From a virus (Duplodnaviria > Heunggongvirae > Uroviricota > Caudoviricetes), in IMG/VR virus record IMGVR_UViG_2703718778_000002, positions 1 to 6,661 of that record: 6,661 nt of DNA. One strand, 5' to 3'. Positions 2,173-2,564 of this stretch are shown piece after piece. Every line of letters starts with the position of its first letter. The first letter of the stretch is position 1. Under the pieces are notes generated by a model, which was not told the origin of the DNA, ran no database searches, and saw only the letters and a program-made list of their open reading frames with translations. The position numbers and the translations under genes are program-made.

Positions 2173-2330
2173 TATTGATCGATAAAAGTAATAGATAAAT
2201 CGTTTTCTACCATAAAATCAGATTATGATTTTTCTGATTATTCTCAGAGAGGCAAAGCCATTGACGCATTTTTGCTATTGAAGCAATATTAAGACTCGTC
2301 ATCCTGGCGATAAAAACTCCTTTGTCGTGT
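2173..2330 (-). promoter_or_regulatory. AT-rich leader and probable promoter/operator region of the capsid transcription unit
   Basis: Non-coding AT-rich stretch immediately upstream of the capsid unit, containing a 7-bp inverted repeat AATCAGA-N10-TCTGATT (2216-2239). No clean sigma70 -35/-10 pair was found on the minus strand, so promoter position is unresolved. Confidence 0.3.
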
Positions 2331-2370
2331 AAAAGCGCCTCCGGTAACAGCAATCGGGGGCGCTTTTTTT
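2331..2370 (+). terminator. Terminator-like hairpin oriented on the plus strand
   Basis: AAAAGCGCC (2331-2339) pairs with GGCGCTTTT (2359-2367) as a 9-bp stem around a 19-nt loop, followed by a run of T to 2370. The T-tail is on the plus strand; on the minus strand only TTTT follows. Confidence 0.35.
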
Positions 2371-2564
2371 GCGCCTGTTTTTTGTAAATGCTTTCGGGAA
2401 CGCTCCAGTGATGAACAAAAAACAACCTGATTCGACACTAAAAATTTTTATTCTTCAATATATCAATAACTTATAGTGGTGGTGATGGTGCCATAAAAAT
2501 CAAAAAATGCGCCTTTTTCCGCGCCCCTCCGCCCCGTGGACAGGCCACCCCCACCAGGAGTACC

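Follow-up and report, generated by a model that had tools for sequence, protein, structure and literature searches.

A probable plus-strand RNA unit between the SSB gene and the capsid operon

The window analysed here is a stretch of 6,661 nucleotides (IMG/VR virus record IMGVR_UViG_2703718778_000002, positions 1 to 6,661) in which every credible gene, as judged from the list of open reading frames (ORFs) and a domain search, is carried by the minus strand. On its gene content the host element is assigned to the Gram-negative phage-inducible chromosomal islands (PICIs). The gene for the single-stranded DNA-binding protein SSB (2606-3028, minus strand) is followed by a cos site and, further downstream, by the capsid operon, the first gene of which is a small ORF of 64 amino acids (1945-2139, minus strand; start as in RefSeq for L001, the closest complete genome). 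A small plus-strand transcript had been proposed for the intervening region in an initial annotation. From the analysis described below, chances are judged to be about even that positions 2261-2370 form a self-contained plus-strand unit for a non-coding RNA of ~75 nt, framed by a promoter and a strand-specific terminator.

The promoter is of the sigma-70 type and was assessed in a footprint set of 32 unique window-type copies (including those of the L157 type), to which the copy of strain SCU-111 was added afterwards. Its -35 hexamer, TTGACG (2261-2266), retains TTGAC in all of these copies, the sixth position being G, T or C. The spacer (2267-2283) is constant at 17 bp and free to vary in sequence, with changes in 8 of its 17 columns (47%) in the window-type set and at nine positions once SCU-111 is included; no indels occur. 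The -10 hexamer, CAATAT (2284-2289), reads CAGTAT in most E. coli copies and CACAAT in the L157 type, and follows the form CA(A/G/C)(T/A)AT in every copy, with A2, A5 and T6 invariant. It is followed by a discriminator/start region, TAAGACTC (2290-2297), which is invariant in the 32 copies and carries one A-to-T change in SCU-111. The initial annotation had paired TTGACG with AATATT (2285-2290) across an 18-bp spacer: both hexamers are present there, and the -10 is weak, as it had noted (three to four of six consensus positions), but its register is one base off. AATATT becomes AGTATT in most copies, losing the essential A2, and is therefore not the conserved -10. A position-weighted score places the site second (18-bp spacer) and fourth (17-bp spacer) among all positions of the window on both strands, and it is the top sigma-70-like match in the whole of three diverged loci, L207 (9,991 nt), L371 and L081. 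Among six promoter variants (80-99% identical), the 12 variable positions of the 29 nt miss all eight consensus-matching positions (hypergeometric P=0.0057), and the 17-bp spacing is unchanged.

The terminator was identified by fold energy and d-score at 2335-2363 (plus strand). Its GC-rich stem of 9 bp, which two loop-side pairs can extend, is formed by GCGCCTCCG (2335-2343) and CGGGGGCGC (2355-2363) and includes one U.G pair (2340/2358). A U7 tail (2364-2370; T6 to T9 among copies) follows, opposite which lies AAAA at 2331-2334; hairpin and T-run are thus as the initial annotation had drawn them. The plus strand folds with a z of -3.66, and none of 200 shuffles folds as well. The hairpin is clearly polar: on the plus strand it has a dG of -19.2 kcal/mol, the U7 tail and a d-score of +33, and on the minus strand a dG of -12.8 kcal/mol, the tail UUUUACAC and a d-score of -18. 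The minus-strand stem is weaker because the U.G pair turns into a C.A mismatch. As a control, the intrinsic terminator of the replication/SSB operon (2568-2589, minus strand) scores +29 on that strand, the strand of the genes. All six variants of the hairpin score from +21 to +43 on the plus strand; on the minus strand they score from -14 to -27 with a tail of U3-U4, and do not qualify as gene-sense terminators. In diverged lineages the minus-strand tail decays to UUUGUCA or UUUAGUA (U3), while the plus-strand tail stays at T6-T9.

The promoter (TTGACG-17-CAATAT) would start an RNA at about 2294-2298, 5-9 nt after the -10, and the terminator would end it within the U run, giving a predicted transcript of ~73-77 nt (2294-2370, plus strand), in agreement with the size of about 75 nt given in the initial annotation. 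No AUG-initiated ORF lies within 2294-2370 on the plus strand, no plus-strand ORF of at least 40 amino acids overlaps it, and there is no nearby plus-strand ORF or gene that would require a terminator. The layout would be that of a base-pairing small RNA (sRNA), beginning with a 5' tail and a weak stem-loop, after which come a conserved C/U-rich segment and a terminator with a long U tail. All copies carry, as T6-T9, the at least six U after the terminator hairpin that are looked for in Hfq-type RNAs. The conserved segment, CTCCTTTGTCGT (2317-2328; TCGTTTGTCG in SCU-111), is single-stranded or weakly paired and is a candidate seed resembling an anti-Shine-Dalgarno sequence. Its core, TCCTTTGTCG (2318-2327), is invariant in window-type and L157-type copies, as are TTGAC, the start region, the 5' arm of the terminator and the T tail; the variable columns amount to 58-75% in the 5' half of the RNA and 36% in the loop. 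An internal stem-loop (2307-2314 with 2321-2328) is kept via one-sided A-to-G and C-to-U changes.

Of 5,426 complete E. coli genomes, 161 contain a 248-nt region around the unit and 144 contain the 141-nt module itself, among them O157:H7, O145, O111, O121, O103 and EAEC 042; strains 2011C-4251 and O145:H28 RM13514 are further examples of carriers. The module is absent from 50,697 phage records and from the plasmid collection. Most copies are 95-99% identical; diverged lineages are represented by SCU-171 (91%), the L157 type from IMG/VR (85%) and SCU-111 (80%), and a pattern search of IMG/VR for more diverged copies returned only the same lineages and chance matches. Forty-six types of upstream region were distinguished in the satellite family. 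A gene-sense terminator lies ~113 nt before the ATG in ~26 of them, and an antisense-oriented one, 195 nt from the ATG, occurs in the window type only. The ~130 nt between the cos site and the putative operator of the capsid operon are likewise not present in the other types.

Several observations weigh against this reading. The simple consensus match is unremarkable by itself: a scan lists TTGACG-18-AATATT at 9/12, and the window has five such sites, not above the 7.5 expected from shuffles, with a -10 that matches at only three to four of six positions. Retention of the internal stem-loop falls short of significance (P=0.12-0.25), and this structure is nearly gone in SCU-111, which also has one substitution in TCCTTTGTCG. 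The hairpin is kept among relatives, as the initial annotation had required, by invariance only: no compensatory base change occurs in either helix among the copies compared, so that the covariation sought there did not materialise, and the hairpin differs among homologues by one indel and one mismatch. A G-to-A stem substitution of the L126 type is neutral on the minus strand and disruptive on the plus strand. A search of Rfam 15 at E<=10 brought no family near its threshold. Furthermore, identity never falls below 80% in the set, which comprises no more than three or four independent lineages, and the conservation is inflated by this shared ancestry. The predicted RNA is nevertheless probably the product of an sRNA gene new to annotation and carried on a mobile element. 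The promoter and terminator, with their strand and their conservation, are established in silico, while transcription and stability of the RNA, its target and any effect on helper or satellite are inferred.

Alternative readings and the flanking control regions

A possible though somewhat improbable explanation is that the terminator is the only functional part. It would then be a plus-strand insulator, keeping stray or divergent transcripts that arise in the AT-rich capsid control region from reaching the cos site and the replication module; the RNA would be a functionless by-product, and the promoter match either fortuitous or a by-product of a protein-binding site. This accords with the terminator being the most robust feature of the locus and with an RNA body devoid of significant structure or covariation, and the high conservation of the adjacent cos-associated stretch (2371-2404) makes a need for protection plausible. 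A functionless promoter should decay, yet its consensus positions are spared (P=0.0057) and it is the top-scoring site in diverged loci. TCCTTTGTCG and the start region are spared too.

It is unlikely that the hairpin serves as a gene-strand or bidirectional terminator, shielding the capsid promoter against transcripts that read through from the SSB operon and cos, with a plus-strand polarity that is accidental (for example, the outcome of an inversion). The gene-sense terminators of related PICIs do occupy the same locus, between cos or the replication origin and the capsid control region, and combine a GC-rich hairpin with a T run; the tail TTTTTTTGCGCCTG of the window hairpin resembles the TTTTTTTGCGTCTG found 3' of them. 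The frequency of such terminators (~26 of the 46 types, ~113 nt before the ATG) argues for this reading, as do the lack of any other sense terminator between cos and promoter in the window type and the neutrality of the L126-type substitution on the minus strand only. The relatives' terminators nevertheless have the opposite orientation and stand ~113 rather than 195 nt from the ATG, and the window hairpin has a conserved promoter on its own strand ~70 nt upstream. Read on the minus strand, its stem is broken by the C.A mismatch, its tail is U4 and falls to U3 in diverged lineages, and its d-score is negative in six of six variants, whereas the plus-strand tail is strictly 6-9 U. A further intergenic type (L087-L089, L160 and L162) carries a different conserved module of ~130 nt in gene orientation, with a strong terminator at its end, ~110-240 nt upstream of the small ORF. 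It could represent a sense-strand small RNA or just the place where read-through transcription stops, and it showed no convincing promoter.

The capsid operon is preceded on the minus strand by a promoter, TTTATC-17-AATAAT (2199-2171), recognised by its weighted score and by conservation in the family. When the 127 nt preceding the small ORF were aligned for 28 representative satellites of several genera (including Kluyvera and Buttiauxella loci as well as metagenomic and viral contigs), this promoter stood out as a conserved TTTACTTACCACTTTTAnnGATCAATnAT block, preceded by ATTAATCTGTTTTTCTGAT. In the window an inverted repeat, AATCAGA-N10-TCTGATT (2216-2239), aligns with the ATTAATCTGTTTTTCTGAT block of the relatives; it lies between the two divergent promoters and is a putative operator. 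The capsid control region as a whole (2171-2240, promoter block and upstream ATTAATCTGTTTTTCTGAT) is strongly conserved across genera, which suggests that a common regulator acts on it in these satellites. Given this promoter and the ORF start at 2139, the capsid-operon leader is only ~25 nt long.

Consequently, the proposal of the initial annotation that the RNA is antisense to the capsid-operon leader is not borne out: the RNA at 2294-2370 is transcribed divergently, lies at least 130 nt from the leader and does not overlap it. A cis-antisense regulator of the capsid operon, pairing with the leader transcript, is accordingly held to be very improbable. The RNA does lie upstream of the operon on the opposite strand, and read-through or helper late transcripts that cross cos would be perfectly complementary to it, which would be relevant where the satellite is co-oriented within a helper late operon. 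A leader starting from the promoter at 2171-2199 stops short of the RNA, and the L157 type does not retain the alternative minus-strand promoters further upstream (at 2314 and 2255).

On the other side of the hairpin, cos1 (2405-2572, minus strand) corresponds by homology to the region that directly precedes terS in lambdoid phages. It is identified as a cos site because it is 91% identical to this region of phages 1720a-02 and CP-1639 and 75% identical to that of mEp460; the similarity ends 33 nt before the terS ATG. A cosN-like core is placed at about 2519-2539 from its resemblance to lambda cosN. Compared with the phage loci L002, L255 and L373, the site is a complete cos in gene orientation, and 1720a-02 and CP-1639 are Stx-type phages; the cosB part is phage-like, unlike that of the published EcCICFT073 cos1. 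A second cos-like site, cos2, starts directly after the terminator of the capsid gene; the window covers it at positions 4-54, where it is cut off by the left end, and L001 has the whole of it (8790-9065). The two sites have in common the cosQ/cosN part and the motifs TTTTTTGTAAA and GAACAAAAA, and differ in the middle. Both motifs also occur in the stretch immediately 3' of the terminator (2371-2404, beginning GCGCCTG TTTTTTGTAAATG), which has few variable columns and probably belongs to the cos/cosB end rather than to the RNA.

This proximity raises the prospect that the palindrome and its A/T runs are a packaging element acting as DNA, either as part of cosB or as a site for terminase, integration host factor (IHF) or an Rpp-like factor. 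The hairpin is ~160-190 bp from the cosN-like core, a distance within the span of lambda's cosB, and the adjacent 2371-2404 is very conserved and common to cos2. The probability of such a role is nevertheless rated as very small. The hairpin is absent from cos2 even though the flanking TTTTTTGTAAA and GAACAAAAA are present there, and it is for this reason not counted as part of cos. In addition, phage homology ends at 2405, other satellites of the same cos type have no hairpin, and the strand asymmetry (the U.G pair and the one-sided U7) is a signature at the RNA level. It is highly improbable that the minus-strand ORF MTSLNIASIAKMRQW... (start 2301) encodes a small protein or type I toxin with the plus-strand RNA as its antitoxin, and this candidate was rejected: AAAGGAG does precede its ATG, opposite the 5' half of the RNA, but at a spacing of 14 nt, most copies have a premature stop at codon 15, and the predicted peptide lacks hydrophobic character. 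Nor was any conserved promoter found for it on the minus strand.

A candidate target in the helper phage

If the ~75-nt RNA is made, it would most likely pair in trans with a ribosome-binding region, and the best candidate target would be the Shine-Dalgarno and start region of the prohead protease/major-capsid gene of a helper-type phage. The segment CUCCUUUGUCGU (2317-2328) is a perfect 12-nt complement to ACGACAAAGGAG of phage 1720a-02, whose cos is 91% identical to that of the window. ACGACAAAGGAG is located where the portal gene ends, and a GTG (18733) in frame with the annotated protease/capsid ATG follows 6 nt downstream. The start codon is taken in by a second block of predicted pairing, which gains strength in the diverged variants. 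The satellite's own capsid paralogue differs in its translation start region and would be spared.

In mEp460 and several phages of other genera, no start but the GTG preserves the conserved N-terminal SWF motif, and the GTG is on that account probably the true start of the phage protease/capsid fusion. Annotation of this start is inconsistent, being placed at ATG 18688 in 1720a-02 and by PGAP (L255), at a downstream ATG in mEp460 and far upstream in CP-1639. The GTG is preceded by AAGGAGG (L255, 18688-18733; L372, 135-205; L373, 2150-2314). The complementary site is very common in E. coli prophages, with at least 55 matches in IMG/VR. A 241-nt portal/protease junction occurs in 2,056 of the 5,426 E. 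coli genomes, module-carrying strains being included among the matches listed.

For all four RNA variants the protease/capsid start region ranks first of 65 start regions, a set to which it was added after the match had been seen. This late addition is one of several points that count against the proposed pairing. A 12-mer match somewhere in the phage is obtained with 11.7% of shuffles (P=0.117) and is not significant genome-wide; when windows were slid along the entire phage, duplexes as good or better turned up at other places for the variants of the window and SCU-171; and both GenBank and PGAP annotate a downstream ATG rather than GTG 18733. Target prediction by duplex energy over long windows was noisy, its top hits differing between variants. 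To see whether the segment derives from the phage portal/protease junction, the DNA was aligned locally; this recovered a core of 12-15 nt only, and other phage sites aligned equally well; this core could conceivably be due to common descent with the junction. None of the other satellite types carries the anti-start-region motif. The match between CUCCUUUGUCGU and ACGACAAAGGAG is a suggestive lead to a mechanism of low probability. The full proposal, that CUCCUUUGUCGU and a second block near the 5' end of the RNA would mask the Shine-Dalgarno sequence and GTG of the protease/major-capsid gene of a helper prophage while the paralogue escapes, is regarded as unlikely.

The host island and comparable RNAs

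The capsid gene downstream of the intergenic region encodes a fusion of a ClpP-type prohead protease with a major capsid protein (59-1948, minus strand; domain search). It is always preceded in these satellites by a member of the 64-amino-acid protein family (VHIDAxT...PxPxKGQ...W), homologues of which were found in Kluyvera, Yersinia, Buttiauxella and Moellerella; searches of Pfam and the PDB with this protein gave no match. The mechanically called ORF of 75 amino acids (1945-2172) begins upstream of the predicted transcription start of the capsid operon, and its real product is probably the 64-amino-acid protein starting at 2139. In the Yersinia and Moellerella relatives (L006 and L017) near-consensus LexA boxes, CTGTATAAATATCAG and CTGTATATATATCAG, lie over the capsid leader ~20 nt ahead of the small ORF, so that these relatives may place their capsid operon under SOS control. 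The window type has no LexA box at this position.

Beyond the SSB gene, the minus strand carries an ORF of 109 amino acids, a D5-type primase (3589-5337; domain search), a DUF4222 protein and several small ORFs. Downstream of the primase gene there are iterons (3407-3581) made up of direct and inverted copies of GGTAGA..CTACC units, which are probably the replication origin. In L001 the element is ~10 kb in length; its tyrosine integrase adjoins tRNA-Pro, and it also encodes an Icd-like protein and a small helix-turn-helix protein (68 amino acids) with a weak match to Phage_AlpA (17.8 bits, cut-off 21). A PDB search for an Rpp homologue with the 109- and 64-amino-acid proteins returned no match. 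EcCICFT073-type Gram-negative PICIs have been published with a capsid homologue and two cos sites (PMC6092414, PMC6739421). The hallmarks found here (an integrase at tRNA-Pro, a D5-type primase with downstream iterons, the protease/capsid fusion, cos1 and cos2) fit this description, and on these grounds the element is a cos PICI of the EcCICFT073 type and not the P4-type satellite that it had been taken for in the initial annotation. One copy of the satellite (L374; E. coli 2014C-4423, 2519000-2543000) sits inside the large-terminase gene of a lambdoid prophage in the same orientation. Its RNA module is ~5.8 kb upstream of the helper's portal/protease-capsid junction, and this junction carries the complementary site. 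Such an arrangement of a helper-embedded PICI has been described (PMC10111431).

A literature search found no paper describing the RNA, and in the searchable literature no RNA regulator has been described for Gram-negative PICIs. The best Rfam hits were STnc130 (27.6 against a threshold of 55, minus strand) and ctRNA_p42d (23 against 50). The weak match to STnc130 of Salmonella (2323-2462, minus strand) uses the same hairpin read on the other strand and is probably driven by the terminator alone; both hits were dismissed as terminator-driven and below threshold. Hfq-dependent sRNAs from prophages and islands of E. coli (Esr41, PasA-D, AgvB/AsxR) are likewise short and intergenic, end in a GC-rich terminator with a long U tail, and are borne by mobile elements of pathogenic strains. 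Esr41 (~70 nt, GC-rich palindrome, poly-U) was considered for this resemblance and rejected: it is located in SpLE1, and its Rfam family (RF02676) gave no hit. PasB, 'embedded among phage structural genes', was rejected too, because it occurs in phage genomes, from 50,697 records of which the module is absent, and its probe sequence differs; it lies in PP6 of E2348/69, at other coordinates.

The CI RNA of satellite P4, with which the initial annotation had drawn an analogy, is also a small stable satellite RNA acting by base pairing. Beyond the site named below, it has a further pairing site, seqC. The CI RNA is processed from a leader transcript in the eta/kil region, and its pairing partner is the seqA site of that transcript (PMC10111431). 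The predicted PICI RNA differs: it has a promoter to itself, and neither the window nor L001 contains a second site complementary to it. Among 8-mers complementary to its conserved segments, those found in the window and L001 fall in its own locus, with one 8-mer, ATGACGAG, in the capsid gene and scattered sites in the host chromosome. A P4 CI/C4-type immunity RNA was rejected, as the C4 antisense RNA family gave no Rfam hit even at E<=10, no seqA/seqC-like repeats occur in the window or L001, and the element is assigned to the PICIs.

Among the closest known systems is SviR, an sRNA of the Vibrio cholerae satellite PLE, which occludes the ribosome-binding site of the helper structural (capsid-related) gene gp120 (Dunham, Angermeyer & Seed, 10.1101/2022.04.08.487710). 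Like the unit described here, SviR comes from an ORF-free intergenic satellite region with its own promoter and a rho-independent terminator, and occlusion of a ribosome-binding site is the mechanism proposed here as a lead. SviR is ~210 nt long, is induced by ICP1 infection, has two seed regions and is experimentally established. The PICI RNA is ~75 nt, belongs to an unrelated satellite family and host and has no detectable relation to SviR; it is predicted from sequence, and its target pairing is statistically insecure.

Even if the RNA has no function, the anatomy of the intergenic region is fixed as SSB terminator, cos1, plus-strand unit, operator and capsid promoter. If the transcript is real, 144 of 5,426 complete E. 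coli genomes would harbour an unannotated sRNA gene. Gram-negative PICIs hijack their helpers via proteins such as AlpA and Rpp and via cos mimicry. Were the less probable anti-helper role to hold, an E. coli PICI would also interfere with the helper capsid at the RNA level, and the RNA would be the second independent satellite sRNA directed against a helper structural gene, after SviR of PLE. In published work the PICI capsid gene has been found dispensable for transfer; an anti-helper sRNA would give this gene a role and make it experimentally approachable.

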